54,966 nt of DNA from a virus (Duplodnaviria > Caudoviricetes). The stretch lies in the IMG/VR virus record IMGVR_UViG_3300036782_000031, positions 1 to 54,966 of that record; one strand, written 5' to 3'. The position numbers and the translations under genes are program-made. The notes beneath the pieces are model-generated. The model saw only the letters and a program-made list of their open reading frames with translations. It ran no database searches and was not told the DNA's origin. This document shows, in pieces, positions 810-54,316 of this stretch. How positions within the stretch are numbered: position 1 is the stretch's first letter; each line of letters begins with the position of its first letter.

Positions 810-1259
810 TCAGTGCTTCTTGGAAGCGAGGTTGCCGTCGGCCGTCCAGATCAGCTCCAGGTTGTCGTCGGCCAGCTGGTCGGCGTCCTGGGCGATGCCC
901 GCCTGGGCGCGGTCCTTGGGCTGGAACGCAGACACCGGGATGACCTGGGTCTCGTCCGCGTCCTGGACCGGCATCGGCTCGGTGTCGGTCGCCATCTGGA
1001 TCGCGTTGGCCTTGTGCTGCTTCCGGCTGGCCCAGGTGGCCCGCAGGATGCCCCGCGCGATGAACAGCACCAGCGCGGTACCGGCCGCGATGACGACAGC
1101 CCACATCGCGATCTTGAGAGCCTCGACGATGACGTTCCAGTACATGTAGAAGAAGACCGCGACGCAGACGATCGCCCCGGCCACGAACAGGGCAGGGCTG
1201 CACTGTGCCGTAGAGCACTGGCGCACCGCCCACTTCTGATAACGCTCCCACAGCTTCAT
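810..1259 (-). CDS. Two-TM membrane protein (Spd-like accessory)
   Basis: 149 aa, two hydrophobic helices, acidic C-terminus; ATGA overlap with the ATPase gene. Confidence 0.75.
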   Translation of the reverse strand: MKLWERYQKWAVRQCSTAQCSPALFVAGAIVCVAVFFYMYWNVIVEALKIAMWAVVIAAGTALVLFIARGILRATWASRKQHKANAIQMATDTEPMPVQDADETQVIPVSAFQPKDRAQAGIAQDADQLADDNLELIWTADGNLASKKH

Positions 1260-2938
1260 GCTGCAGCCCTACCTTTCCTGTTTTCGAGAGCGTAGTCGTG
1301 GAGGAACTGCGAGTCGTCGTAGAATCCCTGGACCCACGTCTGCTCTGAACCCTTAACCATACATATCCTACCTGGCCCGGTCTGGAATGACGGCGCAGGC
1401 GGACCGACGATCCTATCCCACTGTCCTTTCTTTGAGATCGACATGCCGAACACTCCGAAGGCAGCCTTCAGAGACTCACCACCGAGCGCTTTGTCGGTGA
1501 CGTCCTGGAACATCATCTCGCCTCGCATGTTGGCCTGCCGACCGAGCCGCAGGAGCGGCGCGATAGCCTCGCTCCAGATCGGCGGAGTGACCGGGCCACC
1601 GGTTGGCATCTTGAACCGCTTGTAGTAGGACTTCAGGTTGCCGCTGAGGTCGTTGCCCTCGTCCACCAGCACCCAGATGTCGTTGAAGTCCTCCGGCCGC
1701 TTCTGTCCGGTGCGGATGGCCGTGTAGCGCTTCCGGAGCATATCCTCCAGGATGTAGAACACATCCCAGATCTTGTCCATCTCGGACTCCGGGTTGTCGT
1801 AGACATGGACGCCAGGGATGCCACGCAGGTACTCGAAGCTGACCTGCTTCGTGTCGATGCAGTACAGGTCAGCCCACGGGTCGTTGTGGCAGATCTGGGC
1901 AGCCTTGACCAAGAAGCCAGTCGACTTGCCGGTGCCAGAGTCAGCCGCCCGCAGGTGCCACGGCGTATCGCCGTTGTGGCTGGTGACGTAGACGCTCTTG
2001 TCCTCCTGGACTCCGACCGCGTATTTGCCCCGAACCAGCCCTTCGATGTCCGTCAGGTAGTCCCGGAAAGTAGCGGCAGCCGGCAGCCCGCTTACAATCG
2101 GATGCCAGGTCAGCATGCGCGGGTTGGTGGTGGTGCTCCATCGGAAGCGCACCCGGCCGTCCGTGTGGGCCTCCAGCACCTCCTCCACCTGACCGCGCTG
2201 CTTGACCAGAGCCGGGTACCGATCCGGCAGCCGCAGCTCGCCGCGCTCTGGCGTGAGCCGCAGCCCGCGCTCGACCTCGGCCGGGCTCGCGCCCATCTGG
2301 TCAGCCAGCAGCGTAGCCAGCACGCCGACAGGCACCTCGGACTCCAGCTGGGGCTCCTCGGTGACGGTCAGCCTGGCCTTGTTCTCCACCGTCTGCTCGT
2401 CGTGGCTGAACACTGCCTTGGCCTTGCCGGTCATGCTGATGGCTGGCTTGCCGATCGGGTGCTTCCGGATGTGCCGACGCCGCGCCTTCCGGGTGAAGTG
2501 CACGACGAACAGGACCAGCGCGGCGCAGATCAGCCACACGATGGCGCGCAGGGTGTCAACCGGGTCGATGATGATGCCGCACCACGCCGTCAGCCAGGTA
2601 GCCACCAGAGCGTTGTTGCGGATGGCCCGCTGCCAGCGAGTGGTGGTGGTCCAGTAGACAGCCAAGCCCTCCGGCGTCGCGCGGGTCGTGTCGCCTGCAG
2701 TCTTCTTCAGCTTGGCCTCGTCGCCATAGGTGCGCTTCGGATCCAGGTGCAGCCCGGTGTGAACCTGGAACAACAGCCTGTGCATGCGACTTGGACGGCC
2801 AGGGTGGCGCCAGCCCGTGATGTCATGGGCGTAGCCGAACCCAACCGTCCACAAGGCCCAGAAGGCGTACAGGCCATAGATGACCACGAACACCACCCAG
2901 TCCTGCAGGTGGAGTGAACGCAGGAGGAGCCCGATCAT
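1256..2938 (-). CDS. Membrane-anchored FtsK/SpoIIIE (TraB-like) DNA translocase ATPase
   Basis: N-terminal TM helices; Walker A ADSGTGKST; IDTK; Walker B IWVLVDEG; LLRLGRQANM arginine-finger region; GPGR motif near the C-terminus. Confidence 0.85.
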   Translation of the reverse strand: MIGLLLRSLHLQDWVVFVVIYGLYAFWALWTVGFGYAHDITGWRHPGRPSRMHRLLFQVHTGLHLDPKRTYGDEAKLKKTAGDTTRATPEGLAVYWTTTTRWQRAIRNNALVATWLTAWCGIIIDPVDTLRAIVWLICAALVLFVVHFTRKARRRHIRKHPIGKPAISMTGKAKAVFSHDEQTVENKARLTVTEEPQLESEVPVGVLATLLADQMGASPAEVERGLRLTPERGELRLPDRYPALVKQRGQVEEVLEAHTDGRVRFRWSTTTNPRMLTWHPIVSGLPAAATFRDYLTDIEGLVRGKYAVGVQEDKSVYVTSHNGDTPWHLRAADSGTGKSTGFLVKAAQICHNDPWADLYCIDTKQVSFEYLRGIPGVHVYDNPESEMDKIWDVFYILEDMLRKRYTAIRTGQKRPEDFNDIWVLVDEGNDLSGNLKSYYKRFKMPTGGPVTPPIWSEAIAPLLRLGRQANMRGEMMFQDVTDKALGGESLKAAFGVFGMSISKKGQWDRIVGPPAPSFQTGPGRICMVKGSEQTWVQGFYDDSQFLHDYALENRKGRAAA

Positions 2939-3915
2939 AACTCGCCAGTGCCTTCCTGCTGCGCCTCGTCCGGGTGCGCCGCGTCGTAGATGTCCTTGTA
3001 CTTCTGGCTGAGCGCACCCCGGTCAGACACCGGATGGCCGTGCAGCCGCAGCCAGTCTCGCTTGTGCCGGTCGGGCGCGTGGGCGGAGCGACGCCGGGCC
3101 AGCTCGTCCTTCGTTCCTTCGTTCCCGGGCTGGGGAAGGACGGGAGGAACGTCGGGAGGAACGACCGTGGCCTGCTCGGAAGGAACGACGACCTCGGCGC
3201 TGGGAACGACGGGCTCTTGCGCCGCAGCGGATGGCGCAGCCGTGGGGTCTGGCCCTAGGGCTGGCTTGGCGGCCGGGATCGTTCGTTCCGGTCGTTCCAG
3301 GAGTGCGGGCTTCGTTCTGGCGGGCTGGGCGATCGTTTCGCCGAGACGACCAGCAAATGCGTCGGAAAGAGCGCGAGTGCGGGAACGAAGGACGCCCCGC
3401 AGCAACTTCGTGGTCTCGCCCGGGAAAAACACCCAGGAAAGGCGGCCGAAGGAAGGCAGAGCGGCCGGGTAGATGAAGCCAGCCCGCGCCAGCGCACGAC
3501 GCCTGATCCAGCGGGTCTGGAACTCAAACACCACCATCGCCAGGATCGGCAGAGACGACCACAGCGGGATAGCAGCCCGGCTCTCGTGCCCGAGGATGAC
3601 GTGCAGTGCCTGCAGGTAGGCAGACAGGATGGCGATGATGCGGACTGCCATCCGCGGACCTCCACCGCTCATGCCCTCTTCTGCGTACTTGAGCGTCAGC
3701 CCGGCCATGATGAGTGCAGAGCCGTCGAAGACGGTGCTCATGCCGATCGCGAAGATAGGCGGCACACCAAGCTTGCGTGCAACGTAGAACAGCGAGTAGC
3801 CACTGATGGCCAGGATGACGCTCAGGACGATCACCCAGAGCACGCTGTCCCAGACCGTGACTGCGGCCTTGCGGACCCTTTTGCCGATCGGAGCATCGGC
3901 GTTACCCTTGCTCAT
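2935..3915 (-). CDS. DUF2637/Spd-like 4-TM protein with Pro-rich linker and C-terminal Lsr2-like DNA-binding domain
   Basis: TM pattern S..SL..VA...G....A.....VFDG...S....LH; C-terminal RDWLRLHGHPVSDRGALSQKYKDIYDAAH resembles the Lsr2 motif REWARxxGxxVSxRGRIP. Confidence 0.75.
   Translation of the reverse strand: MSKGNADAPIGKRVRKAAVTVWDSVLWVIVLSVILAISGYSLFYVARKLGVPPIFAIGMSTVFDGSALIMAGLTLKYAEEGMSGGGPRMAVRIIAILSAYLQALHVILGHESRAAIPLWSSLPILAMVVFEFQTRWIRRRALARAGFIYPAALPSFGRLSWVFFPGETTKLLRGVLRSRTRALSDAFAGRLGETIAQPARTKPALLERPERTIPAAKPALGPDPTAAPSAAAQEPVVPSAEVVVPSEQATVVPPDVPPVLPQPGNEGTKDELARRRSAHAPDRHKRDWLRLHGHPVSDRGALSQKYKDIYDAAHPDEAQQEGTGEL
3110..3389. repeat. Cluster of eight GGAACGAM 8-mers in both orientations (clt/TRS-like)
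   Basis: Forward: 3158-65, 3182-89, 3203-10, 3382-89. Reverse: 3110-17, 3118-25, 3282-89, 3291-98. Near matches at 3146 and 3311. Confidence 0.8.
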
Positions 3916-4063
3916 GCGCTCACCTTCTTCCGGTAGGTGTTGCTGCTAGGTCCCGGTCTGTTCCGCCAGATACAGGCCGGGGCCGATATTGATCTTAAGG
4001 ATAGGCGTCCGCAGCCGTCCTGGCTACACGGCGTGGTCAGGAGCCCAGCGTATCCTTAGCTAC

Positions 4064-4630
4064 ATGATTAAAGCAATACAGACCCACTATGCTGGGTATT
4101 GGTTCCGCTCGCGCCTGGAGGCGCGGTGGGCGGTCTTCTTTGACACCACTGGCATTGAATGGCGCTACGAGCCAGAGGGTCTGGTTGTCGACACCCCGGA
4201 AGGCAGGATTCACTACCTGCCGGACTTTCTGCTCCCGAATCAGTGGGGCGAGGCCAAGGGCTATCTGCAGGACGCGAGCGTCGAGCGGGTCTGCTCTCTT
4301 GCGGCCGGGATGACCCGGTGCGAGGACAAGGACAGCATGGACCTTGTGATCCTGGGCGACATCCCCCGGCCGAACTCAGACCTGTGGCCGGTCCAGCTCC
4401 ACTACCATCGCGGCAAGCTGTGGGGCGTGGCCTGGGATCCTACTGAGGCTGGCTGCCCGATGGGTCGCCCCCATGTGCGTGTCGTCCCCGACGCCTTGAA
4501 CGCCGAGAGGCTGACGGAAGGATTCCCGTTCGGAGCGCCACCGCGTTGGGCTGTTGAGGGTTTGGACGCGGCTCGGCAGGCACGATTCGAGTTCGGCGAA
4601 TCGGGTCGGCCATCAGAGCGTGCGCGATAG
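4064..4630 (+). CDS. PD-(D/E)XK-family nuclease-like phage protein
   Basis: FRSRLEARWAVFFD..WRYEPEG..YLPDFLL..WGEAKG; ATG 7 nt after a TATCCT -10, so possibly leaderless. Confidence 0.8.
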   Translation: MIKAIQTHYAGYWFRSRLEARWAVFFDTTGIEWRYEPEGLVVDTPEGRIHYLPDFLLPNQWGEAKGYLQDASVERVCSLAAGMTRCEDKDSMDLVILGDIPRPNSDLWPVQLHYHRGKLWGVAWDPTEAGCPMGRPHVRVVPDALNAERLTEGFPFGAPPRWAVEGLDAARQARFEFGESGRPSERAR

Positions 4631-4754
4631 CCACCAGCGCCAGGTCCGCGATCGTGCGCGGCTGCTCGGGGTCGTTGAGCATGTCGTCGATCAGCAGCAG
4701 CATCCGCTCGCCTTCGTCCAGGTGATCCTGCTCGTCGAAGTAGTTAGCTCTCAT
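4440..4754 (-). CDS. Hypothetical protein
   Basis: Coupled to the upstream gene; 3' part overlaps the nuclease gene on the opposite strand. Confidence 0.45.
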   Translation of the reverse strand: MRANYFDEQDHLDEGERMLLLIDDMLNDPEQPRTIADLALVAIAHALMADPIRRTRIVPAEPRPNPQQPNAVALRTGILPSASRRSRRRGRHAHGGDPSGSQPQ

Positions 4755-4983
4755 CGCGGTGCCGCCGTTCGCTCTCGCGGGAGCCGCGCCGCGCTTCCAG
4801 CTCGTCCTCGTCCAGGAACCGGCGCTCGTCGCTGTCGGCGTACTTGTCCTGCTCGGAGGCGACCGCGCTGCCTCGCTCGGCGTAGTAAGCTGTCATTCTG
4901 CGCCCGGTGCTGAGCCGGAAGTAGACCATCAGCCCGGCAATGATGGCGATGGCCAGCCCGCCCACGATCAGATCGGACGTCAT
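4744..4983 (-). CDS. Small membrane-anchored protein
   Basis: MTSDLIVGGLAIAIIAGLMVYF N-terminal TM; ATGA coupling. Confidence 0.7.
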   Translation of the reverse strand: MTSDLIVGGLAIAIIAGLMVYFRLSTGRRMTAYYAERGSAVASEQDKYADSDERRFLDEDELEARRGSRESERRHRDES

Positions 4984-5126
4984 GACTGCAGCTCCTTGGC
5001 TCGCAGGGACATGATGTAGGCCAGGACCTGGATGACGTCGCAGGCCATGTTGAGCAGGAACAGGATGACGGCCAGGTGCTGGAGCAGACGGATCGTGTTC
5101 AGCATCGCCTCGTAGAAGAGCGTCAT
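4980..5126 (-). CDS. 48-aa hydrophobic protein (not in ORF track)
   Basis: MTLFYEAMLNTIRLLQHLAVILFLLNMACDVIQVLAYIMSLRAKELQS; ATGA overlaps at both ends. Confidence 0.65.
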   Translation of the reverse strand: MTLFYEAMLNTIRLLQHLAVILFLLNMACDVIQVLAYIMSLRAKELQS

Positions 5127-12260: not shown

Positions 12261-14258
12261 GTGAACAATGCTCTGGAACACGCACATTCCCTGATCAAGA
12301 TGGGTGTGCCTGTTTTCGCAGCCAAGCTGGATGATGAAGGCGACCCGGACCCCAAGAACGACCGCAGATGGGCGCGGTGGCACAAGAAGCAGCCTGACCC
12401 GGCTGCGCTAGCTTCGTACAAGCCTGGTGACGCGCTGTGCGCTGTTACCGGGATCGTGTTCGACGTGATTGACTGGGACCCGCGCAATGACCCCGACAAG
12501 AAATCGTTCAACAGGCTGAGGGAAGAACTGGGCGAAGGCGGACCCAAGATCTACTGGCAGGTGGCCACGCCTAGGCGCGGACGTCACTTGTATGTCGCCA
12601 AGCTGGGTGTGGGCAGTCACAATGGCTTCCTACCTGGCATTGACGTTAAAAGTGGCAAGTCGGATGGCACAGGTCGCGGATTCGTGTTCCTGCCAGGTAC
12701 CGAGCGCAACGGCGGCAAGTACCAGCCGACGTCTCGCTTGCAGGTGCTGAATGGCGTGCCGGATGCAAGCGGTCGCTCGCTGGCCGAATTCATCGAGCAG
12801 TGCCTAGAGGATCAGCGCAACGCGGCCGATGCAGCTGCCTCTGGTGCCAAACGCGAACAGCCGGACGAACTCAAGCGCGCCGTGCTCACTGCTGGGTCGG
12901 GTGAACAGCGTACGGCGCTGCTGCGCTATGTGCACGAGCTAGAACGGCGCGGCTACGCTCGAGACGATATCAAGTCGATTCTGCGAGACGTCTGTTCCCA
13001 GATGCGGAACTTTGACAGCAAGGATCCGTGGTACCCAGCTCGGGGCAATCCTGACAAGCACATCAACGGTCTGTTCCACCGCGCCGGTGCTGTCGTGGCG
13101 GATGGGACGAAGGAAGAGCTGGAGGGAATTCGCGGTCCTAGTCGACCGGGTCTGATGCGGAGCTTCGCCGAGGTCACGACGCGGAAAATCAGCTGGGTGT
13201 ATCCGCCGTATCTGGCGCGCGGCGAAATGACGATCCTGGACGGCGAGAAAGGTGTTGCCAAGTCGCTCACGATCCTGGACGTACTCGCGCGGCTGACTGA
13301 AGGTCGGGATCTCCCAAATGGCGAAATGACCGGCGAGAAAATGAACGTGGTCATCTTCACCAACGAATCCAGTGCGGAGACGGAAATCGCGCCTAGGCTG
13401 CAAGCTGCTGGTGCGAATCTCAGCATGGTGCACGCTCCGAAGATCGAGAAGGACAAACGGGGCAAGGTGAAGGAAACGTGGATCCTGCCAGATGGCTTTG
13501 AGGCGTTCGATCGCGCCATTCGTGAATGCGATGCTCAGGTCGCTGTGTTTGATCCTATCAACGATTTCCTGCAGGAAGATATCAACACGAACAACGATGC
13601 GTCTATCCGGCGGGCTCTCGGGCCGCTGGGTCGTGTTCTGCAGCAGACGGGCTGCGCCGGATGGCTAGTCCGGCATATGAACAAGGACACAGGTGCTAGT
13701 GCGCGAATGCGCGGAACCGGAACAACGGCGTACCAGAATAGGGCCAGAATCCACATGGTCGCTGGACGGCTGCCTCCGGGTGCTGTGGATGGCGCCCGGT
13801 TTGGCCTGGCTGTCGTAGATTCCAACATTCGGAAGGTAGAGGATGCGGTCCTCGCCTACAACGTCGTAGATTCGGACATTGAGGCGGACGACGCCGGTGG
13901 CATGGTGCCTGTGGTGGAATGGTTCGGCATGTGCAACGTCAAGGCCGATGATCTCGTCAAGGAGAACACCGGTAAGCGGCGCGGTCCGGAACCGGTCGCA
14001 CAAGAGGCGATTCGGGAAGTTCTGGACGACATGTTCTCGCGGAAGGACACATGGGCTCGCGCTCGTGTCCTAGCGGAGCTGAAGGCGGCCGGGTGCTCTA
14101 CGAACGAGAAAACGATCAACAAGGTCAGGGACATGATGGGAATCAACGCTGTTCGTGTTATGCGACGCGGTGGGGAAGGCGGAGGCGTGGATCACTGGAA
14201 TTGGACCAACCTGACCGTCAAGGGTCGCGTGCAAGTGCAAGGCGACGATGATGACTGA
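12261..14258 (+). CDS. Bifunctional primase-polymerase fused to a RecA-type/AAA helicase
   Basis: FDVIDWD and TPRRGRHLY prim-pol motifs; Walker A GEKGVAKS; VFDP; LVRHMNK; RGT. Confidence 0.85.
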   Translation: MNNALEHAHSLIKMGVPVFAAKLDDEGDPDPKNDRRWARWHKKQPDPAALASYKPGDALCAVTGIVFDVIDWDPRNDPDKKSFNRLREELGEGGPKIYWQVATPRRGRHLYVAKLGVGSHNGFLPGIDVKSGKSDGTGRGFVFLPGTERNGGKYQPTSRLQVLNGVPDASGRSLAEFIEQCLEDQRNAADAAASGAKREQPDELKRAVLTAGSGEQRTALLRYVHELERRGYARDDIKSILRDVCSQMRNFDSKDPWYPARGNPDKHINGLFHRAGAVVADGTKEELEGIRGPSRPGLMRSFAEVTTRKISWVYPPYLARGEMTILDGEKGVAKSLTILDVLARLTEGRDLPNGEMTGEKMNVVIFTNESSAETEIAPRLQAAGANLSMVHAPKIEKDKRGKVKETWILPDGFEAFDRAIRECDAQVAVFDPINDFLQEDINTNNDASIRRALGPLGRVLQQTGCAGWLVRHMNKDTGASARMRGTGTTAYQNRARIHMVAGRLPPGAVDGARFGLAVVDSNIRKVEDAVLAYNVVDSDIEADDAGGMVPVVEWFGMCNVKADDLVKENTGKRRGPEPVAQEAIREVLDDMFSRKDTWARARVLAELKAAGCSTNEKTINKVRDMMGINAVRVMRRGGEGGGVDHWNWTNLTVKGRVQVQGDDDD

Positions 14259-14484: not shown

Positions 14485-14713
14485 CCAAACGCGAGGCGAA
14501 TGTCCGATATGCCACAAGCTGCCCGCTGTACATCCTACGGTGGTGGCTTTCTCCGATATTCGGACTTCTAGGGACTGTGCCTGGATGTTGAAGATACTAC
14601 GCATCGAAACTGACGTCGTAGATCCGATTCTCGCGCGGGTCGGCGTTTCTACGTCGGGTACAGTACGGCGTGAGCTGGCGATACTCGTTTTCGGCTACAT
14701 TAATCGGTCTTAG
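14468..14713 (+). CDS. Hypothetical protein (CxxC)
   Basis: 81 aa, CPICH. Confidence 0.45.
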   Translation: MSAPNSQTRGECPICHKLPAVHPTVVAFSDIRTSRDCAWMLKILRIETDVVDPILARVGVSTSGTVRRELAILVFGYINRS

Positions 14714-14876
14714 AAGGTATAGATCTACTGGGGCGGATAAGTAGGTTAGGGGTTAGAAGGTATATCCCCGCCTACTCTACCGTCTAAGTTCGAAAGTGCA
14801 GTACAGGAAATGAATAACCCCTGGTATAGAGGTTAGAAGGTATAGTAGGTACAGTAAGGGGGGATATACCTTCTAA
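14710..14876. repeat. TTAGAAGGTATA iteron-like repeats, candidate replication origin
   Basis: Direct copies at 14710, 14753 and 14833; inverted copy at 14865-14876; fifth copy at 12104; AT-richer than the surroundings. Confidence 0.7.
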
Positions 14877-15398
14877 GTTCGACGACGTCGCACACCACGT
14901 CCACATTTATTTCCGCTGTAGAAAACGCCTTTTGCAGTGTGCAGTGCAGTGTTACGCTACGTAATCGAAATCGGCCTGCCTTCGCGTGTCTGCTACAGTC
15001 CTTTGCTAGGCAAACTGTATATGGTTAGCGGCGGAAAGGTGTTACCTTTAGCGCGGATAACGATGTGGAGTTCTGCGCGCCCATTACGTACAGTAATTGA
15101 GCGCAGTGCGACTGTCTTGGGGCATCGCTGACCTTCGTGTGCGCCGGTTGTGGTCGTCTGCTGCGTCGCATGCTGGTGTGCATGGGACTGCACATTGGCT
15201 ACGCCATGTGCATGGGACTGTCATGGCAGTGGTACTACCATGGCCAGTTGTTTGCAGTGCTCTGTGTGGTCTCTGTCGCAGATGTATTGGGTGCTGCCTG
15301 CGCTGCAAAATGTCCCGCACAGGTTCACGAGTGGTGTGCACATCCATTTGAGTACATTACAGCATCAACTGATCCCTACCGCAACAGTAGGGAATGCT

Positions 15399-19732: not shown

Positions 19733-19806
19733 GCGCCGAACTGTTTGCAGCCGTTCTGGCAGCCGTCATCTGTCTGGCTTTGCTGTGGGCTCTGGGGGTC
19801 CTGTGA
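19729..19806 (+). CDS. 25-aa single-TM peptide
   Basis: MSAELFAAVLAAVICLALLWALGVL; ATGA and GTGA overlaps. Confidence 0.5.
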   Translation: MSAELFAAVLAAVICLALLWALGVL

Positions 19807-20057
19807 CGTATCTGCCGCAGGCCCAGGCTCCCACCCGGCTGGGTCGCATCAGGGAGCGCGCCGGAGGCTTCGCAGCCAGCCTCAGGACCCAGGCCAAGCT
19901 CCGTTCTCGCCCACTCCGAGCACACCTGCAGGATCACGCCTATACATTGGTGGGATTCGGATCTATCGACGCAGCATGTTTCCTACACTCGCTCTTTTGT
20001 GGGCTGCTTGTTGGTGGTATCTTGGTGCTTGTTTTCGAGTGGAAGGTGAGCGACTAG
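19803..20057 (+). CDS. Small membrane protein
   Basis: C-terminal hydrophobic helices; coupled to neighbours. Confidence 0.6.
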   Translation: MTYLPQAQAPTRLGRIRERAGGFAASLRTQAKLRSRPLRAHLQDHAYTLVGFGSIDAACFLHSLFCGLLVGGILVLVFEWKVSD

Positions 20058-20599
20058 TGCTGCCATCCCTCACAGACCTCGACCAGTACAGCAAAGCGGG
20101 GTGGCCGAAGACCTGGCCTGCTACCTCGCGGACGTTCTGGTCACCGGTGGATGATGTGCACGGCGCGCTGGCCGCGCTGCTGAAGTCCGCTACCATCTCC
20201 GTCGTGGTTGCCATGTACGGCTTCGACGACGAGGAGCTGGCTGAGATCATCCGGGCCAAGATAGACCAGCCGGGTGTCTTCGTTCAGCTGAGCCTGGACA
20301 AGACCCAGGCGGCCGGGAAGGCTGAGCAGGCCATCCTGACGAAGAACGACTTCCCTGCAACCAGCATCGCCATCGGTCATAGCGAGCGCGGCGCCATCAT
20401 GCACCTCAAGACCTTCATCGTCGATGGGGTCTATGTGGCAACCGGCTCGACCAACTGGTCGACGGGCGGCGAGACGAAGCAGGACAACCAGCTCACCATC
20501 GTGAGCAACCCGTACGAGTCAGCGAACGCCAGGGCTCGGGTCGACACCATCCATGACAACATGCTCCAGCAGATGGCAGCCAGGAGGGTGGTGACGTAA
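20057..20599 (+). CDS. Phospholipase D superfamily (single HKD, Nuc-like) protein
   Basis: MHLKTFIVDG..TGSTNWS..DNQL = HxK(x)4D(x)6GSxN; VAMYGF. Confidence 0.85.
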   Translation: MLPSLTDLDQYSKAGWPKTWPATSRTFWSPVDDVHGALAALLKSATISVVVAMYGFDDEELAEIIRAKIDQPGVFVQLSLDKTQAAGKAEQAILTKNDFPATSIAIGHSERGAIMHLKTFIVDGVYVATGSTNWSTGGETKQDNQLTIVSNPYESANARARVDTIHDNMLQQMAARRVVT

Positions 20600-33416: not shown

Positions 33417-36400
33417 ACCTGGTTGACGTTACCATCCGGACCACAGCGGACTCCTCCGGGCTCGGCAAGGCCAAGACCGATGCGGCCGCAGCTGGGGCCG
33501 CTGCCGGTAAGGCTTACGCTAACGCCTTCAACAAGGCAAGCAAGGTGTCGGCCGGTGGCGTCAAGGGCGGCTCGTCCTCGGCGTCGTCGGCCGCGCCCGG
33601 CATCGCTGGCACAGACAACACCCTGCTGAAGAAGCTCGAGAGCCAGGCCAGCCAGCCGGGTGGCATCGGCATCATCGGCACGGGCACGGACAGCACGCTC
33701 CGGAACATGCTGCGGAACGTTCTGTCCAAGGGCACTGCTGGTATCCTGGGCGGAGCGAGCACCGGGACCACGACAGCCGGAACGAACAACGGCAAGACCA
33801 CACTGGGCACGATGCTCGGCAGCGCGCTTGGCTTCTCGGGCGACAGCGCCGGAGCCAAGGCGGCCGGGTCCTCCGACGGCAAGAGCTACGCGGCTGGCTT
33901 CAAGGCCAGCATGGTGACGGCTGTCGGTGGGGTCCTCGGCGGGATCTTCGGCGGCAGCAACAGCGACCAGGACGACGCGAAGAAGGCCGGCACCGACACT
34001 GGCAAGTCGTTCGCATCTGGTGTACTGTCTGCACTCGCGTCCAGCGGGATCGCCAAGACAGTAGCCGACTTGCTCGGGATGGGCGGAGGCGGCAACGACG
34101 GTACGAAGCAGGGCAAGACGTTCGCCCAGAACCTGGCCGACGGCATGGGGCCAGGCATCCTCGGGCTGGACGCGAAGACGACGTCGATCATCGGCGCGAT
34201 TGGTACCGCGCTTGCGACCCTACCGGGCATAGCCGGGATAGCGGGCGTCGGCATAGGCGTTGCGCTGATCGGCGAGATGATCGCCCAGGTCGTCAAGAAC
34301 AGCCCCAAGCTCACGGCGCAGTTCACCGGCATTGAGAACGACGCCAAGAAGATGCTCACCACCATCGGTGAGCCGATCATCCCGGCGCTGAGCAAGGTAC
34401 TGGATCAGGTACCCGGTCTCCTGAAGCAGATCACCCCGGCGCTGTCCGGCGTCATGAAGTCCGTCGCGCCACAGCTGGCCGGGATCTTCCAGGGCCTGAT
34501 CCCGATCATCAAGGATCTGGTCGGCGTCATGCAGGCAGCCGCGCCTGCGTTCGGCCCGGCGATCGAAGCGCTGGAGAAACTGGCGGCCGGGATCCTGCCC
34601 GGTCTCGAGGCGATCATCAAGGCGATGGTCCCGGAGATGGGCCAGTTCACTAAACTCTTCTCCACGGCCGGGGCCGCCATCGGCGGGATCTTCACGGCCG
34701 CAGCGCCAGCCGTCGGCGCAAGCATGAAGGTCATCACCGCGCTGCTGTCCGTGGTTGGTGCGCTGCTCCCGATCCTGATGAAGGTCGGCGGCGTGTTCGC
34801 CAACGCGCTCGCCCCGGCTATCGCGGCTGCTGCGTCCGTGCTGAAGGACATGGCCCCGTTCCTCATCATCATCGGCAACGTCCTGGCGGGCCTGGCCTCG
34901 GCCATCCTGGGCGACCTCGTCGGCGCGTTCGACGCTCTGGTCACGCTGCTGAAGGGCATCACGCCTTCCCTGAACTTGTTCGCCAACCTGCTAGACCAGG
35001 TCTTCCACATCCTCGAGAACAAGGGTGTGTTCGCGGTCCTGGGTGACGCGCTGGAGAACACGGTCAAGCCGCTGGCTGCTGTCGTCAACGAGCTAGTCAC
35101 CGGGCTGGCCCCGATCCTCCCGACGATCGTCCAGCTCCTCAGCACCTTGCTCGTGACGGCCATCCAGCAGGTGTCGAGTGTCTTCCTGGTCCTGATCGGT
35201 GCGCTCGTCCCGCTCATCCCGGCCATCACCGAGATCATCACCTGGGTCGTCAAGCTGATAAGCGGCGCGCTACAGCCGCTGATCCCAGCCATCACCGCCG
35301 TGATGATCATCTGGAAAGCACTGACGATCGCGCTCGAGATCAACCCGTGGGCGGCTGCTATCGCTGCAGTCATTCTCGTGGCCGCCATCATCGTCAAGTA
35401 CCACACCCAGATCTGGAACTTTATCCAGCAGATCTGGAATGACATTGTCAACTTCATCAAGCAGGTGTGGAACGACATCCTCACCTTCGCCGAACAATGG
35501 TGGCCCCTGCTGCTCGGCGTCGGCGGTGTGATCTATAAGTACCACGAACAGATATGGTCGTTCATCCAGTCCATCTGGAACGACATACTCAACTTCTTCA
35601 AGTCGATCTGGAACAGTATATCGTCCTTCGTGTCCAGCGCGGTGGCCGGTATCGTGACCGACCTGAGCAACGCCTGGAACAGCATCAAGAATACGGCGGA
35701 GTCGATATGGAACGCCGTCGCCACATTCTTCACGACGTTCTGGAACAACCTGATATCGGGCTGGCGCTCTGACATCAGCACCATTGAGTCCATCCTGTCG
35801 GCCGCCTGGACCTCGGTCAAGAACACGGTCACCTCCGTGTGGGACTCCATCGTCAGCTTCTTCGCCGGCATCCCGGGCAAGATAGAGGCGTCGCTGAAGT
35901 CGCTCGGCTCGGGCCTGGAAGGCATCGCCAAGAGCGCGCTGACGGACTTCTGGAACGGCGCCAAGTCCATCGCCTCTGATGTGACGTCCTGGTTCTCTGG
36001 CTTCGCGTCCGGCGTCATCGGTGTCGTCAAGAAGATCCTCGGTGTGCTCAGCCCGTCGACTGTCTTCTACGACATCGGCAAGAACCTGATGATTGGTCTG
36101 AAGAACGGCATCGTCGACCACCTCAAGACTGCCGTAGACGCGACGACGAAGGCAGCCACCGGCGTGGCAGGCGCAGCCGGTACGGCAGGCGGCTCCATTG
36201 AGTCGATGATGAAGTCGATGGCAGCGGCCAAGGGCTGGACCGGCGCTGAGTGGAATGCGCTGTATGCCGTGGAGGAGCGCGAGGCTGGCTTCAGCATGAC
36301 AGCCCAGAACCCAACCAGCAACGCCTACGGTCTGGCCCAGTTCATCAATGGTCCGTCTGAGTATGCGCAGTATGGCGGTGACGTCAACACGGCGGCCGGG

Positions 36401-50563: not shown

Positions 50564-50792
50564 GGCTCACGTCCAGACTCAGCTCATGGAGCCGAGCGTG
50601 GAACGCGCGCCAGCTGCCTTCCGTGTCGACCATCCGCTCCACGTACAGCACCGACAGCCCACCCAGGCTTTCCTGGTGGCGATGCGTCATGTGGAGCGCG
50701 AAGTCTTCTGTCCCCATGTTCTCGGCCGCCTGAACGACCGGAACTCTTTCTGCCACGTGTGTCACTTCAATCCCCGCTCTAGTCAGGATCAA
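50544..50792 (-). CDS. Hypothetical protein (start uncertain)
   Basis: ORF bridging dnaE and the next gene. Confidence 0.5.
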   Translation of the reverse strand: MILTRAGIEVTHVAERVPVVQAAENMGTEDFALHMTHRHQESLGGLSVLYVERMVDTEGSWRAFHARLHELSLDVSHDHGPA

Positions 50793-53067
50793 CGACGTAC
50801 AGCTTGTCCACCATTACCGGAGTGCCGAACCCAGCGATCCGGTTGCCGACCGCGACGACAACGTCGTGATTGACTGCGATGCTTTCGATGGTCTTCTTCA
50901 GCTTCGGGAAGGTGAACCGGTTGACACGCAGATACACTTCCTCATCAGTAACGTCGTAGCACCGGAGTGAGCAGTACTCAAGTAGCTCGGGGTGCTTCAG
51001 CGTCTTAAGGATATCCGCTTCTTCCTCGCCGGTACGCGAGCGCCGGTTCTCCACGGCGTCCTGGTAGTTGCGCTCTCTCACCATGCCCGCGTAGACGACG
51101 CGCGGACCCTTCCCATAGTTCGCTCTCGCGTTCGCCCCATAGGTTTGCTCCACGAACTCCTCGGCCACCTGGATACCGGTGTGTGTCGGGCGCGGTATGT
51201 CGTGCTGCTTTGACAGCCACGTCAGCGTAGCCTTCATCGTCCGCTCTACGCGATACAGACCGAACGGGTCATCCGCGGAGGCGAACGTCTCCATCTTCTC
51301 GGTGGTCTTCGGTCCGATGCCCGGGATGACCTGGAGGTCGGACCAGTTCTTCGGAGGCGCCAGGGCCTTCAGGTCGTCAATCCGGGTGGCTGTCTTCGCT
51401 CCGACGCCGGGTATGCTCTCCCAGCCCGCGATCAGCTGCGGCGTGCCGGTCTGGGGGTTGTCGCCTCCGCCCGCGTGCCAGCCCGTCCAGGACGACGAGC
51501 TCAGCCGGATGTTCGGCGGCTTCACGTCGATGCCGTGCCCGAGCGCATCCTTCATAAGCTTGTACTGCTGCTCGGCGTCCGACGCCTTGGCCAGAGAAGC
51601 CGCATAGAATTCCAGTGGGTAGTGTGTCTTCAGCCATGCGGTCCAGAACGCCAGCATGCTGTAGCTGATGGCGTGCGCGATGTTGAACGAGTAGGTGCCA
51701 GAGGTGACGAGCCGCTTCCATATCTTGTCCGCCAGCTTCGGGTTGATGTTCCGCTCGGCCGCGCCGTCGATGAACTGCTGATAGCTCATCTGGAAGGAGG
51801 CCTCGCCTAGCTTCTTGGATATGATGCGGCGGATCTGGCCAACCGAGAACCAGTCGAATCCACCGATCTCCTTCAGGACGCGGAGGATCTGTTCCTGGTA
51901 GATGATCTGCCCGTAGGTATCAGCGGTGACGGCATCAACCATAGGATGTAGCCGTTCGGCTTTCCGCTTTCCGTGTCGTACTTCAACGTACGCAGCAGTC
52001 TGGCCCGAGAACAGAGGACCCGGCCGGGAAAGAGCGTTGATGTCCGCGATGTGCTGGAAATGATCTGGATGAACGTCACGGTTGACGAGCCGAGTAGCAC
52101 GACCTTCAAACTGAAAGATCCCGGTGACGTCCCCTTTACGGAATACATCAATCGTCCCTTGGTCCGTGTCCGGGATAGCATATAGATCCTCCAGCGTCAG
52201 CCCAGCTAGCTCCAGGCAGCGGGCGATCATCCCCATCGTGGTGAGTCCCAGGAAGTCCAGCTTCAGCGCATCAACGTACTCAACGTCATACTTGTCGATG
52301 CTGAGGCTCCGAACGCCGTTCCGTTCGTACACGGCGCAGATGTCAGTGAGCGGCGAGTTAGCGACGATCATTCCGGCCGCGTGAATGGACATCCCTCGCA
52401 CATCGCCCTCAAGTCGGGCAGCTTTCCACAGGTCAGGGAATTCATCGAACACAGCCTTTGCGTTCGGAAACATCGCAACTGTATCCTGAAGCGAAGTGTC
52501 GAACCGGCTGTCGCCACCACTTCGCTCAATGATGAGGTTAGAGACTGTCTCCTTCGCAGCGTGCGGTATGTTGTAGACCCGAGCCACGTCGACCAAGCTG
52601 TTCTTACCCCGGTATCGAATGAAGTTCGCAACCTGTCCCACGCATTCTGGACCGTACTTGCCAGCCAGATACTCGCGAACCTCATCGCGCCGATCATCTG
52701 AGCAGTCCGTGTCAATGTCGGGCGGGTCGGCTCTTGACACATCCAGGAACCGCTCGAAAAGCATCCCCTGATAACGGTACGGGTCGATCTCGGTGATTCG
52801 TAGGAGCCACGCGACAACCGACGCTGCCACGCTACCACGGCCGGGTCCGATGGGGATCCCGTTGTCCTTGGCCCACCGGATAGCGTCGGAGGTGAAGAGG
52901 AAGAAGTCAGCAAGATCCTTCTCCAGCATGAGATGCAGTTCGTACTTGACTCGTTCGGCATACCACGCCTGCTCTTCCTTCGGCCGCGAGCCGATCTTCC
53001 GATAGCGCCAGCCCATCCGGCACCACTCGGTCAGTAGCTCCTCCGCGTTAAGCTTGCCAGTCATCAT
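50779..53067 (-). CDS. dnaE: DNA polymerase III alpha, catalytic part (lacks PHP)
   Basis: GPGRGS, FERFL, PPDIDTD, HAAG, KLDFLGL, GIFQFE, RPGPL, YQEQI, YSFN.AH. Confidence 0.95.
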   Translation of the reverse strand: MMTGKLNAEELLTEWCRMGWRYRKIGSRPKEEQAWYAERVKYELHLMLEKDLADFFLFTSDAIRWAKDNGIPIGPGRGSVAASVVAWLLRITEIDPYRYQGMLFERFLDVSRADPPDIDTDCSDDRRDEVREYLAGKYGPECVGQVANFIRYRGKNSLVDVARVYNIPHAAKETVSNLIIERSGGDSRFDTSLQDTVAMFPNAKAVFDEFPDLWKAARLEGDVRGMSIHAAGMIVANSPLTDICAVYERNGVRSLSIDKYDVEYVDALKLDFLGLTTMGMIARCLELAGLTLEDLYAIPDTDQGTIDVFRKGDVTGIFQFEGRATRLVNRDVHPDHFQHIADINALSRPGPLFSGQTAAYVEVRHGKRKAERLHPMVDAVTADTYGQIIYQEQILRVLKEIGGFDWFSVGQIRRIISKKLGEASFQMSYQQFIDGAAERNINPKLADKIWKRLVTSGTYSFNIAHAISYSMLAFWTAWLKTHYPLEFYAASLAKASDAEQQYKLMKDALGHGIDVKPPNIRLSSSSWTGWHAGGGDNPQTGTPQLIAGWESIPGVGAKTATRIDDLKALAPPKNWSDLQVIPGIGPKTTEKMETFASADDPFGLYRVERTMKATLTWLSKQHDIPRPTHTGIQVAEEFVEQTYGANARANYGKGPRVVYAGMVRERNYQDAVENRRSRTGEEEADILKTLKHPELLEYCSLRCYDVTDEEVYLRVNRFTFPKLKKTIESIAVNHDVVVAVGNRIAGFGTPVMVDKLYVVDPD

Positions 53068-53345
53068 CGTCCTCGCTTCTCAGAGCCACCCATAGCACGA
53101 CGCTGACGACGAGCGCCAAGATCGCCAACACCATCAGGCAGCTCTCGAGGTACGTCATCCCCGGGAACGTCGGGCTCTCGCATTGCGTCTTCCACACGGC
53201 GCTTGTTCTCCTCGGTCGGCTCCCGCTCGTACTGGCAGATGACGCAGTCGTCGGTGTTGCCCTCGGGCTGACCCAGGACGACCGCTGTCTTGGCGTGACC
53301 GATCAGGCTGTGAAGGGTAGCGATGTACCAGGCGATCACGTCCAT
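53064..53345 (-). CDS. Small CxxC protein between the two dnaE parts
   Basis: DDCVICQYE; overlaps both neighbours. Confidence 0.6.
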   Translation of the reverse strand: MDVIAWYIATLHSLIGHAKTAVVLGQPEGNTDDCVICQYEREPTEENKRRVEDAMREPDVPGDDVPRELPDGVGDLGARRQRRAMGGSEKRGR

Positions 53346-54316
53346 GGCTTCAGGTCCTCCTCGCTGATCGGGTAGCGGAGCCGCTCGGCCTTGGGGAGCG
53401 TGACGTTACAGCCCTCTGCGATGTACGCGCTCCGCTCGATGGCCGACCACGCCGTCCGGCCGGATAGCCCGGTCTTCTTCAGCCGGTCGGCTAGGGCCTC
53501 GTCGCTGTCGGGCAGCGTCAGCGGCACCTCATAGTTCCACTCCCGCATGGCGTCGTCAACGGACGCCTTGCCCCGGTGAACCGCGTGGAGCACAGCCTGC
53601 ATCTCACCGTCGTCCGGACGCGGGTAGTGGACGTCGCCGGTCACCACGAGCGGGACACCCGTCTCCTTCGAGATCTGCTCGTAGGCTACGTTCATCTGGC
53701 ACGTCCGCTCCAGCTCATAGAACGGCTGGCACTCTAGGTAGTAGTCGTCTCCGAAGATTCGGCTGTAGCTGTCGACCAGTTCGTAGGCTCCGTCCCAGTC
53801 GTATCCACCTTCAGGCTCAGGGATCCCTTTGCCACCCAGGAGCGTGCAAGCGAGCTGAGACCCGGAGCAGCCACTGAGCACAACGAGACCAGAGCGGAAC
53901 TCAAGGAGCGCAGCTCCGCTGACGGTGGGATGGTAATAGTAATCGAGATAGCTCTGGGTGACGATCCGGTTGAGGTTTCGGTAGCCATTGACATCCTTCG
54001 CCACGATCGTGAGATGGTTCTTGAACTGGCCCTTGGCCGGGAGGAGGTCAACCTCACCGTCCGCGCGCACCCGCATCCGCCGTTCGTCGTTCTCCTCTAG
54101 CACGGACCCGCAGTATGCCTCGAGACCAAACAGCGGCTTGATGCCCGCCTTGTTCGCGGCCTTCTCGAGCTGGAAGTGTGAGCTGACGTTGCCGTGCTCC
54201 GTCAGGGTCATTGCGGTGTAGCCCAGCTCAACGGCGCGCTCTACGTGCTTGGCCGGGGTCCCGAAGCCATCCCCGAAAGAGAACGTGCTGTGATGGTGCA
54301 GATTGACAAACCTCAT
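53336..54316 (-). CDS. dnaE: DNA polymerase III alpha N-terminal PHP domain (stand-alone)
   Basis: FVNLHHHSTFS..DG, LTEHG, GLEAY, HLT, GYRNL, LSGC, DVHY. Confidence 0.9.
   Translation of the reverse strand: MRFVNLHHHSTFSFGDGFGTPAKHVERAVELGYTAMTLTEHGNVSSHFQLEKAANKAGIKPLFGLEAYCGSVLEENDERRMRVRADGEVDLLPAKGQFKNHLTIVAKDVNGYRNLNRIVTQSYLDYYYHPTVSGAALLEFRSGLVVLSGCSGSQLACTLLGGKGIPEPEGGYDWDGAYELVDSYSRIFGDDYYLECQPFYELERTCQMNVAYEQISKETGVPLVVTGDVHYPRPDDGEMQAVLHAVHRGKASVDDAMREWNYEVPLTLPDSDEALADRLKKTGLSGRTAWSAIERSAYIAEGCNVTLPKAERLRYPISEEDLKPWT

Follow-up and report, generated by a model that had tools for sequence, protein, structure and literature searches.

A GGAACGAM repeat array inside the gene of a phage DUF2637-type membrane protein is constrained as DNA and resembles plasmid clt loci

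We analysed a 54,966-bp stretch of phage DNA, the full IMG/VR virus record IMGVR_UViG_3300036782_000031 (hereafter the window; CheckV completeness estimate 58%). Eight exact copies of the octamer GGAACGAM (M being A or C) lie between positions 3110 and 3389, within the gene of a membrane protein (P0001) that directly precedes the gene of an FtsK-like ATPase (P0002). This array is real, is constrained at the level of DNA, accompanies the two-gene module across relatives, and changes together with the membrane protein or the tail of that protein. It is probably a protein-binding cis element of the module, and by analogy with the clt loci of Streptomyces plasmids it most likely works like a clt. 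The fuller interpretation, a clt-like cis-acting docking site that is putatively read by the C-terminal tail of P0001 and tethers phage DNA beside the ATPase, falls a little short of an even call in our judgement. The evidence favours the membrane-protein tail over the ATPase as the putative reader, and we name the tail in that role tentatively.

The initial annotation had described four copies on each strand in alternating blocks, two of them head-to-tail at 3110-3125. Every one of these exact copies was recovered at its place, and two copies with a single mismatch can be added:

3110-3117, minus strand: exact GGAACGAM copy
3118-3125, minus strand: exact GGAACGAM copy, head-to-tail with the copy at 3110
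3146-3153, plus strand: one-mismatch copy, GGAACGTC
3158-3165, plus strand: exact GGAACGAM copy
3182-3189, plus strand: exact GGAACGAM copy
3203-3210, plus strand: exact GGAACGAM copy
3282-3289, minus strand: exact GGAACGAM copy
3291-3298, minus strand: exact GGAACGAM copy
3311-3318, minus strand: one-mismatch copy, read from the sequence
3382-3389, plus strand: exact GGAACGAM copy

With flanking bases the array consensus extends to GGAACGAMSG. The whole window contains 13 matches to GGAACGAM, eight of them inside the array, against an expectation of 3.73 +/- 1.93 (largest 10); none of 100 dinucleotide shuffles reached 13. Under an order-1 Markov model the Poisson log10 P of the array is -14.3, and GGAACGA forms the top 7-mer cluster of the window (eight in 300 bp, with runner-up 7-mers at 4-5), so that the octamer is indeed locally enriched over background, as the earlier proposal presupposed. 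The five copies outside the array match the background of about 3.7 expected for the whole window, and there is therefore no genome-wide enrichment. The analogy with FtsK KOPS that had been drawn for clt repeats does not extend to this array on this point, as the octamer is not spread along the genome. KOPS are dispersed and polar along the chromosome and are read by the gamma domain of FtsK. The window shares with that system an FtsK-fold motor and an oriented 8-mer, but here the motif is confined to one array and no gamma-like domain appears in the ATPase model.

The eight exact copies use five of the six possible strand/frame combinations and encode VVP (three times), ERP/ERT, N-E-G-T-K and LRS. 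The earlier statement that the copies are translated in different frames is thus accurate for the array as a whole and too broad in detail, since the three VVP copies share one frame and the two ERP/ERT copies share another. When P0001 was recoded synonymously 200,000 times, with the protein unchanged and codon usage set to the window's own, the recoded genes carried 0-4 motif copies (four in 33 runs) and never at least five, against the eight observed. The motif also requires rare codons (GTT 0.12, GAA 0.24, CGA 0.08, GGA 0.10, CTT 0.05). Because the copies occupy five strand/frame combinations and no recoding yields more than four, the constraint on the array lies on the DNA and not on the protein, as first proposed.

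The array belongs to a module of two overlapping genes, whose parts are as follows (models by AlphaFold2, AF2, with their predicted local distance difference test scores, pLDDT; GC3, G+C content at third codon positions):

2935..3915, minus strand: P0001 gene, 326 aa, with the array in codons 176-269 (GC3 0.77; phrog_10376, E 4.8e-31)
3481..3888, minus strand: DUF2637-type membrane domain, predicted four long helices, aa 10-145 (AF2 pLDDT 83-96)
3112..3330, minus strand: region coding for a predicted disordered P/A/V-rich linker, aa 196-268, with 7/8 exact copies (AF2 pLDDT <50 for most of 196-266)
2950..3111, minus strand: C-terminal Lsr2-like domain, aa 269-322, candidate array reader (Pfam Lsr2_DNA-bd 16.6 bits, below the cut-off of 26.9; phrog_1223)
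1256..2938, minus strand: P0002 gene, 560-aa membrane-anchored FtsK/TcpA-like ATPase (AF2 model pLDDT 82)

The ATG of P0002 overlaps the stop of P0001 by 4 bp (ATGA at 2935-2938), and the array is found 170-450 bp upstream of the ATPase gene start. As it occupies codons 176-269, the array fills the linker and stops where the tail domain starts. The AF2 model of P0001 places a further helix at aa 165-194 and ends in a confident four-helix C-terminal domain (aa 269-322); GC3 is 0.68 in the linker versus 0.78 and 0.85 in the flanking parts. The linker is predicted to be disordered, and the DNA that encodes it could therefore accommodate 8-10 copies of GGAACGAMSG irrespective of their orientation and frame.

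P0001 and its relatives form one family by alignment. Against Pfam DUF2637 (PF10935, gathering cut-off 22.8 bits) P0001 scores 13.9 bits; aligned relatives, named here by locus, score 42.1 (L017), 30.6 (L013), 29.7 (L002), 28.4 (L056), 28.3 (L008), 24.2 (L009) and 22.9 (L044), with L043 slightly under the cut-off at 22.2. For the tail domain (PF23359), L017 (41.0), L043 (37.7) and L002 (27.6) are above the cut-off, and L013 (26.5) and L044 (22.5) are below it. A Foldseek comparison of the tail with 2kng gave a probability of 0.91, a TM score of 0.57 and 33% identity over 51 columns, with an E value of 1.1 for the whole model; the membrane domain had no PDB match at E <= 0.001, and NCBIfam had no match for P0001, P0002 or their relatives. 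Lsr2 itself has an N-terminal oligomerisation domain, prefers AT-rich DNA, and has an RGR minor-groove loop. The likeness of P0001 to Lsr2 proteins, phage-encoded ones included, lies in the Pfam match of the C-terminal domain in relatives and in the weak fold match to 2kng; the differences are that the tail is fused to a four-helix membrane domain and its proposed targets are 50-57% G+C.

P0002 is recognisable by structure as a motor of the FtsK type, Foldseek returning TcpA (6o1x, E 5.5e-14) and the FtsK motor (6t8o, E 8.8e-14), both with probability 1.00. Its Walker motifs are GSGTGKS and VLVDEGN. The Pfam FtsK_SpoIIIE score (PF01580) is 15.4 bits for a cut-off of 24, and one relative reaches 23.6. 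Read from the AF2 model, long hydrophobic N-terminal helices lie at 13-41, 101-124 and 126-159, and after the last motor strand there follow just two helices, 543-552 and 555-559. Since the model ends about 20 residues past that strand, P0002 is predicted to have no space for a C-terminal winged helix.

Homologues of P0002 number 80, at 43-75% identity, and those of P0001 comprise 232 cluster representatives. Isolated phages (INPHARED) gave no match by megablast of 1000-5000 or by tblastn of P0002, an ATPase-alignment scan of GTDB genome contigs confirmed zero relatives, and viral contigs searched with P0001 or P0002 singly gave no close relatives. The ATPase-alignment scans yielded 13 viral and 49 metagenomic loci, and the comparative set consists of 25 distinct loci including the window, with near-duplicates removed and 900 bp or more of sequence ahead of the ATPase gene. 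An automatic search placed a membrane-protein gene directly upstream of the ATPase in all loci but L020 and L032, and the L032 gene was located by hand. In L020 the open reading frame (ORF) directly upstream of the ATPase (2920-3465) ends, by eye, in an HNH-like sequence instead of a membrane-protein tail. The tails are mostly Lsr2-like, and Zn-ribbon-like in L009, L011, L038 and L056. The closest relative, the P0003/P0006 pair on a 36-kb contig (72-75% identical), was not recovered by the viral or metagenome scans, so that conservation of the window's motif there can be judged from protein alone: ERPER and the three VVP are retained, GNEG is retained with T to R in the second tandem copy, and LRSR has become LRGR.

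The relatives carry short-repeat clusters of their own in the same zone. We scanned each locus for 8-mers, allowing one mismatch, in 300-bp windows and took the locus-wide maximum. The best cluster lay wholly within -1300 to -150 of the ATPase start in 14 of the 25 loci versus 4.4 expected (simulated P 1.2e-5, for a zone picked after the data had been seen and for loci related by descent), with a tie in that zone at four more; the maximum fell elsewhere in seven (L006, L014, L020, L029, L032, L043, L044). The expectation that homologous operons would have their own cluster at this position was thereby borne out. Two placements can be distinguished. In class A the array is in the linker or the 3' end of the membrane gene, as in the window; in class B, comprising 12-14 relatives, it lies in intergenic DNA that precedes the membrane gene:

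Class A, L002: GCCAATG, 9 linker-coding copies and 6 in the non-coding spacer before the ATPase
Class A, L009: GTAGCGCT
Class A, L011: GAAGCGCTAC-type, partly non-coding (spacer)
Class A, L017: GCTAACG
Class A, L043: CTAACGCT
Class A, L038 and L056: CCGCAC, 11-12 copies, several frames
Class B, L004 and L008: CGCTTAC
Class B, L012 and L046: CGCTTAT
Class B, L014, L050 and L058: CCGCGTAT
Class B, L007, L041 and L057: CGATAGCG
Class B, L026: TCGCGTTT
Class B, L029: CGGAGTAT

As in the window, the arrays of L009, L038 and L056 use several frames and/or both strands. Within groups of near-identical loci that show any variation, 3 of 239 motif positions changed versus 67 of 1077 intervening positions (one-sided Fisher P 4.6e-4), so that the motif positions are the less variable.

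This arrangement is close to that of the Streptomyces clt loci. In the passages on clt of two studies (PMC4447253, PMC3583192), these loci pack repeats of 5-9 bp, direct and/or inverted, into 50-200 bp next to an FtsK-like tra gene or within it; the motif differs per element, and the loci are bound by TraB/TraA. The same passages describe nine CCGCACA[C/G][C/G] repeats for pJV1, four TGACACC plus CCCGCCC repeats for pWTY27, of which 16 bp fall within traA, and 8-bp repeats read by TraB, through a winged helix-turn-helix at its C-terminus, for pSVH1. Like the clt loci of pSVH1, pJV1, pIJ101 and pWTY27, the window has a short-repeat cluster beside an FtsK-like ATPase gene, with 8-10 copies of an 8-10-mer in 280 bp and motifs specific to each locus. 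Unlike them, the element is phage-like, its array sits in a gene other than that of the ATPase, within the part that codes for a linker, the ATPase is predicted to lack a C-terminal winged helix, and the motif follows the membrane protein. The suggestion of TraB-type loading at a clt therefore stands as far as the anatomy of the site is concerned, and not for the ATPase as the loader. That the site marks the phage genome as cargo, and that its gene is Spd-like, are inferences.

The motif's affiliation is clearest in two triplets of recombinant loci, in which it tracks the membrane protein or its tail and not the ATPase or the conserved gene upstream. In class B, the DNA of L004 and L026 agrees at about 95% as far as the stop codon of an upstream gene for a 170-aa protein, the proteins of this type match at 172 of 181 residues, and the ATPases are 91% identical (507/555), whereas the array region cannot be aligned and identity between the membrane proteins is 62%. 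The membrane protein of L004 is 83% identical to that of L008, and its array motif is L008-like (CGCTTAC-type), not TCGCGTTT. Segment by segment, the L004 ATPase is 97/79/82/99% identical to L026 versus 71/60/70/90% to L008, every segment including aa 201-315 pairing L004 with L026. In the class-A triplet, the ATPase (72%) and the N-terminus of the membrane protein (87%) pair L009 with L056, and the C-terminal 45 aa (73%) and the CCGCAC motif pair L056 with L038; DNA identity is 77-96% over the N-terminal part, compared with 40-58% over linker and tail. Across loci with Lsr2-like tails, the loop that aligns with the DNA-contact loop of Lsr2 falls into classes that go with motif classes: RRGPL with CGCTTAC, QRG[KR]T with CGCTTAT, [QS]RGRL with CCGCGTAT, HGR[IM] with CGATAGCG, and RAR with CTAACG, the last pair occurring in two distant, well-supported ATPase clades. 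The two loci that share CTAACG, L017 and L043, have ATPases that are 45% identical with unlike helices in a helix-turn-helix (HTH)-like stretch.

These comparisons bear directly on the classical form of clt, in which the ATPase itself would recognise the repeats, load as a hexamer and pump DNA, with the membrane protein as an accessory. In its favour, the distance of the array from the ATPase start is shared by the window, L002, L009, L017, L043, L038 and L056; known clt loci are, in the relevant part of PMC3583192, repeat arrays beside or overlapping tra genes and bound by TraB/TraA; and the HTH-like stretch of the ATPase (aa ~200-240) differs between L004 and L026. The arrays of L056 (2228-2484) and L038 (1320-1647), with 11 in-gene copies each of CCGCAC/GCGCAC, share a CCGCAC core with the nine pJV1 clt repeats (PMC3583192, in part), a sequence likeness that could be coincidence for a six-base core in GC-rich DNA. 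We nonetheless regard this explanation as unlikely: the P0002 model is without a C-terminal winged helix, all ATPase segments group L004 with L026 while the motif groups L004 with L008, L017 and L043 share a motif despite their divergent ATPases, and the closest ATPase pair, L009/L056, has different motifs.

The 170-aa protein was considered as an array reader and rejected, because it is absent from the whole window and is 95% identical between L004 and L026 despite their differing arrays. Its gene lies directly upstream of the membrane gene in 23 loci (8 profile members plus 15 of 17 sources scanned), for example L004 1808-2353 and L006 2010-2504; in the window that place is held by a divergent endonuclease-I-like gene (3989-4630). 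One member scanned (L006) had no Pfam match, no PDB sequence match fell below E 0.07, and one of eight members matches a 'transcriptional regulator' PHROG (E 6e-4). In L043 an extra ORF (~1170-1769) stands between the 170-aa gene and the membrane gene, and by eye its translation resembles a GntR-type helix-turn-helix protein, recalling plasmid TraR/Kor.

Other precedents concern the membrane partner. SpdA2 of pIJ101 binds a palindrome inside its own gene, on an element with TraB and Spd genes; its site, sps, consists of a conserved 12-bp palindrome present once to three times, and the SpdA protein is small and soluble (from sections of PMC4170104). The proposed own-gene binding site is the likeness here; the many asymmetric, locus-specific copies and the membrane-anchored protein are the differences. 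SpdB2 is a membrane protein that binds double-stranded DNA (dsDNA) non-specifically and interacts with TraB, and its homologues on actinophages have been suggested to aid the spread of phage DNA (PMC4447253, in the part on Spd proteins). We liken P0001 to SpdB2 by function only, P0001 being DUF2637-type with an Lsr2-like tail. In the literature searched, which left most subscription journals and supplements outside, neither such an array nor this pairing of genes is described for phages, and the mentions of DUF2637 are incidental; a term search of the main text of a phage Lsr2 survey (PMC8612146) gave no occurrence of 'membrane', 'transmembrane' or 'FtsK'.

The mechanism that we propose treats the array as part of a module formed by the DUF2637 membrane protein with its DNA-binding tail and the FtsK-like ATPase. 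The copies would be bound by the Lsr2-like C-terminal domain, whose coding sequence follows immediately downstream, and the bound array would tether the phage dsDNA to the membrane beside the hexameric ATPase. The ATPase, predicted to have no sequence-reading domain of its own, would pump or hold the DNA, recognition being handed to the membrane partner in a manner comparable to SpdA2 and the site within its own gene. The outcome of tethering may be spread between hyphal compartments, or segregation or retention of the phage DNA.

Besides the choice of zone and the common descent of the loci in the position scan, several points weigh against this interpretation. P0001 itself scores below the Pfam thresholds for both of its domains, and its loop is SDRGALS (DRGA), not RGR; relatives have RGR, RAR, HGR or RGP at that place. 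The array and the tail-coding DNA are adjacent, and the co-variation in the triplets could therefore be explained by linkage, without function. Mantel tests of motif similarity in eight class-A loci do not separate the candidate readers (against the ATPase, r 0.34 and P 0.05; against the N-terminus of the membrane protein, r 0.30 and P 0.08; against its last 45 aa, r 0.32 and P 0.05). The loop rule has an exception in L002 (THGRM, GCCAATG), whose loop is nearly that of L041 (EHGRM, CGATAGCG), and similar motifs (xTAACGCT/GTAGCGCT) go with different types of tail, Zn-ribbon in L009 and Lsr2-like in L043. The ATPase has its HTH-like stretch at aa ~200-240, and 39 of the 48 ATPase differences between L004 and L026 fall within aa 101-315, so that a reader of the array within the ATPase is possible. 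Finally, the intergenic placement of class B also fits an operator, and class-A loci keep further TAACG/TAATCG-like sites in the upstream intergenic region; the class-A and class-B positions may therefore not be equivalent, class B perhaps being operators.

An operator array, in which the repeats would bind a transcriptional regulator that throttles the module (the P0001 tail or another factor) in the manner of the kil-kor control of traB, is about as improbable in our view as loading by the ATPase itself. The arrays just upstream of the membrane gene in the class-B relatives, and those of L002 and L011 that reach the ATPase start, are positioned as operators might be; a divergent GntR regulator adjoins the DUF2637 gene on a plasmid relative; and traB-traR is a kil-kor pair in which TraR binds upstream of spdB3 (PMC4447253, in its account of that pair). 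In the window, however, the two genes overlap at ATGA and a weak scan found no sigma-70-like promoter in 1000-4700, and 8-17 irregularly spaced copies are many for an operator. The 170-aa protein is no better a candidate for the regulator, for the reasons already given and despite the one PHROG match.

A replication origin, partition centromere or packaging (pac) site that came to lie in the linker by chance, to be read by replication, partition or terminase proteins, is very unlikely. Iterons, centromeres and some pac sites are short-repeat arrays and may lie inside genes, and a primase-helicase and a Pol III alpha are among the window's own genes, but the arrays stay with the module across loci that have other neighbours, and the terminase gene is 15 kb from the array. 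A better origin candidate exists at 14.7-14.9 kb, in low-GC, non-coding DNA beside the primase-helicase gene, with five TTAGAAGGTATA copies. Least likely of all, by a small step, is that the repeats have no function and are a slippage or duplication by-product of a low-complexity linker: the linker is predicted to be disordered, and the coding copies of L002, L013, L017 and L043 (nearly) all share a single strand and frame, with simple peptide repeats as their product (for example AN[GA], VKEP, NARHA), but the window's copies run in both orientations and five strand/frame combinations, depend on rare codons, outnumber those of every recoding, have non-coding counterparts in relatives and are less variable than their surroundings.

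The module has relatives on plasmids. The P0002 motor, searched by tblastn against PLSDB, matched 77 records at ~23% identity, all from Actinomycetota and 54 from Streptomyces, and four of the 77 were inspected. A 34-kb linear Streptomyces plasmid has a GntR regulator gene, divergent and beside a DUF2637 gene (protein score 45.1 bits), together with a small ORF and an FtsK-like protein of 598 aa, which by eye extends ~130 aa past the motor. On a second Streptomyces plasmid a DUF2637 gene lies 1.7 kb upstream of an FtsK-like gene, followed by a 'conjugal transfer protein'. In the Microbacterium and Rhodococcus records no neighbour is annotated as DUF2637. The sole plasmid match of P0001 is a 386-aa DUF2637-type protein beside a NUDIX gene (L064; NZ_CP107756.1, a Streptomyces pseudovenezuelae plasmid). 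Its linker (4421-4905) holds 29 GAGACC/GGTCTC hexamers on both strands and in five strand/frame combinations (21 of them within 250 bp, log10 P -32), which suggests that arrays of the window's kind are not confined to this phage group.

The window encodes terminase, portal, protease, capsid, tape-measure, tail and lysis proteins, and has for replication a primase-helicase of the Prim-Pol/AAA_25 type as well as a Pol III alpha that is split. It also encodes transglycosylase-like (PF06737), Rv2525c-like and Lsr2-like domains, which we take to be actinomycete families and which suggest a host in Actinomycetota. Two soil sequencing runs contain the stretch; one is possibly its source, and the other has no coverage of 3076-3408. 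Rfam gave no match in 2000-5000.

Several further observations concern other parts of the window and its relatives. The split Pol III alpha is DnaE-like, with the PHP domain at 53336-54316 (minus strand), the polymerase and finger domains at 50779-53067 (minus strand), and a 93-aa ORF between them (53064-53345). A PLD-like (PLDc_2) gene at 19745-20599 lies between the large terminase and portal genes, and the tape-measure gene has a local cluster of ATCTGGAAC-type 7-8-mers (four in 300 bp, window 35309-35420). Of the five TTAGAAGGTATA copies at 14704-14882, three are direct and two inverted, and the unit can be extended to 18 nt; the non-coding DNA of low G+C (0.56) that holds them, downstream of the primase-helicase gene (12261-14258), is a candidate origin or regulatory region. 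In L006, L007, L008, L012 and L014, dense clusters of CCGGAGCC/CGGCCGGA-type 8-mers recur at +2.5 to +3.3 kb from the ATPase start, downstream of that gene; they are probably a repetitive coding region, and the window contig ends short of the equivalent place.

At its boldest, the tethering interpretation would have a soil actinophage lineage adopt plasmid-style dsDNA transfer machinery, an FtsK-like pump and a DUF2637 protein, with the linker-codon array, read by the tail, passing the genome to a pump that has no reader of its own and so allowing virion-free movement between compartments or cells; linker arrays of DUF2637 genes, the 29 GAGACC hexamers of the Streptomyces plasmid among them, would then be a general and overlooked form of clt. 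We consider this extension unlikely. Short of it, the array bears on the suggestion of Thoma et al. that Spd-like proteins aid the spread of phage DNA in mycelia, and the roughly 25 loci with differing motifs, their motif-matched tail-loop classes and the two recombinant triplets amount to natural specificity swaps. If the tail does read the array, FtsK-type DNA transfer in actinomycetes may delegate sequence recognition to a membrane partner rather than to the pump, and cis sites can hide in codons that specify disordered linkers, out of sight of annotation centred on genes.

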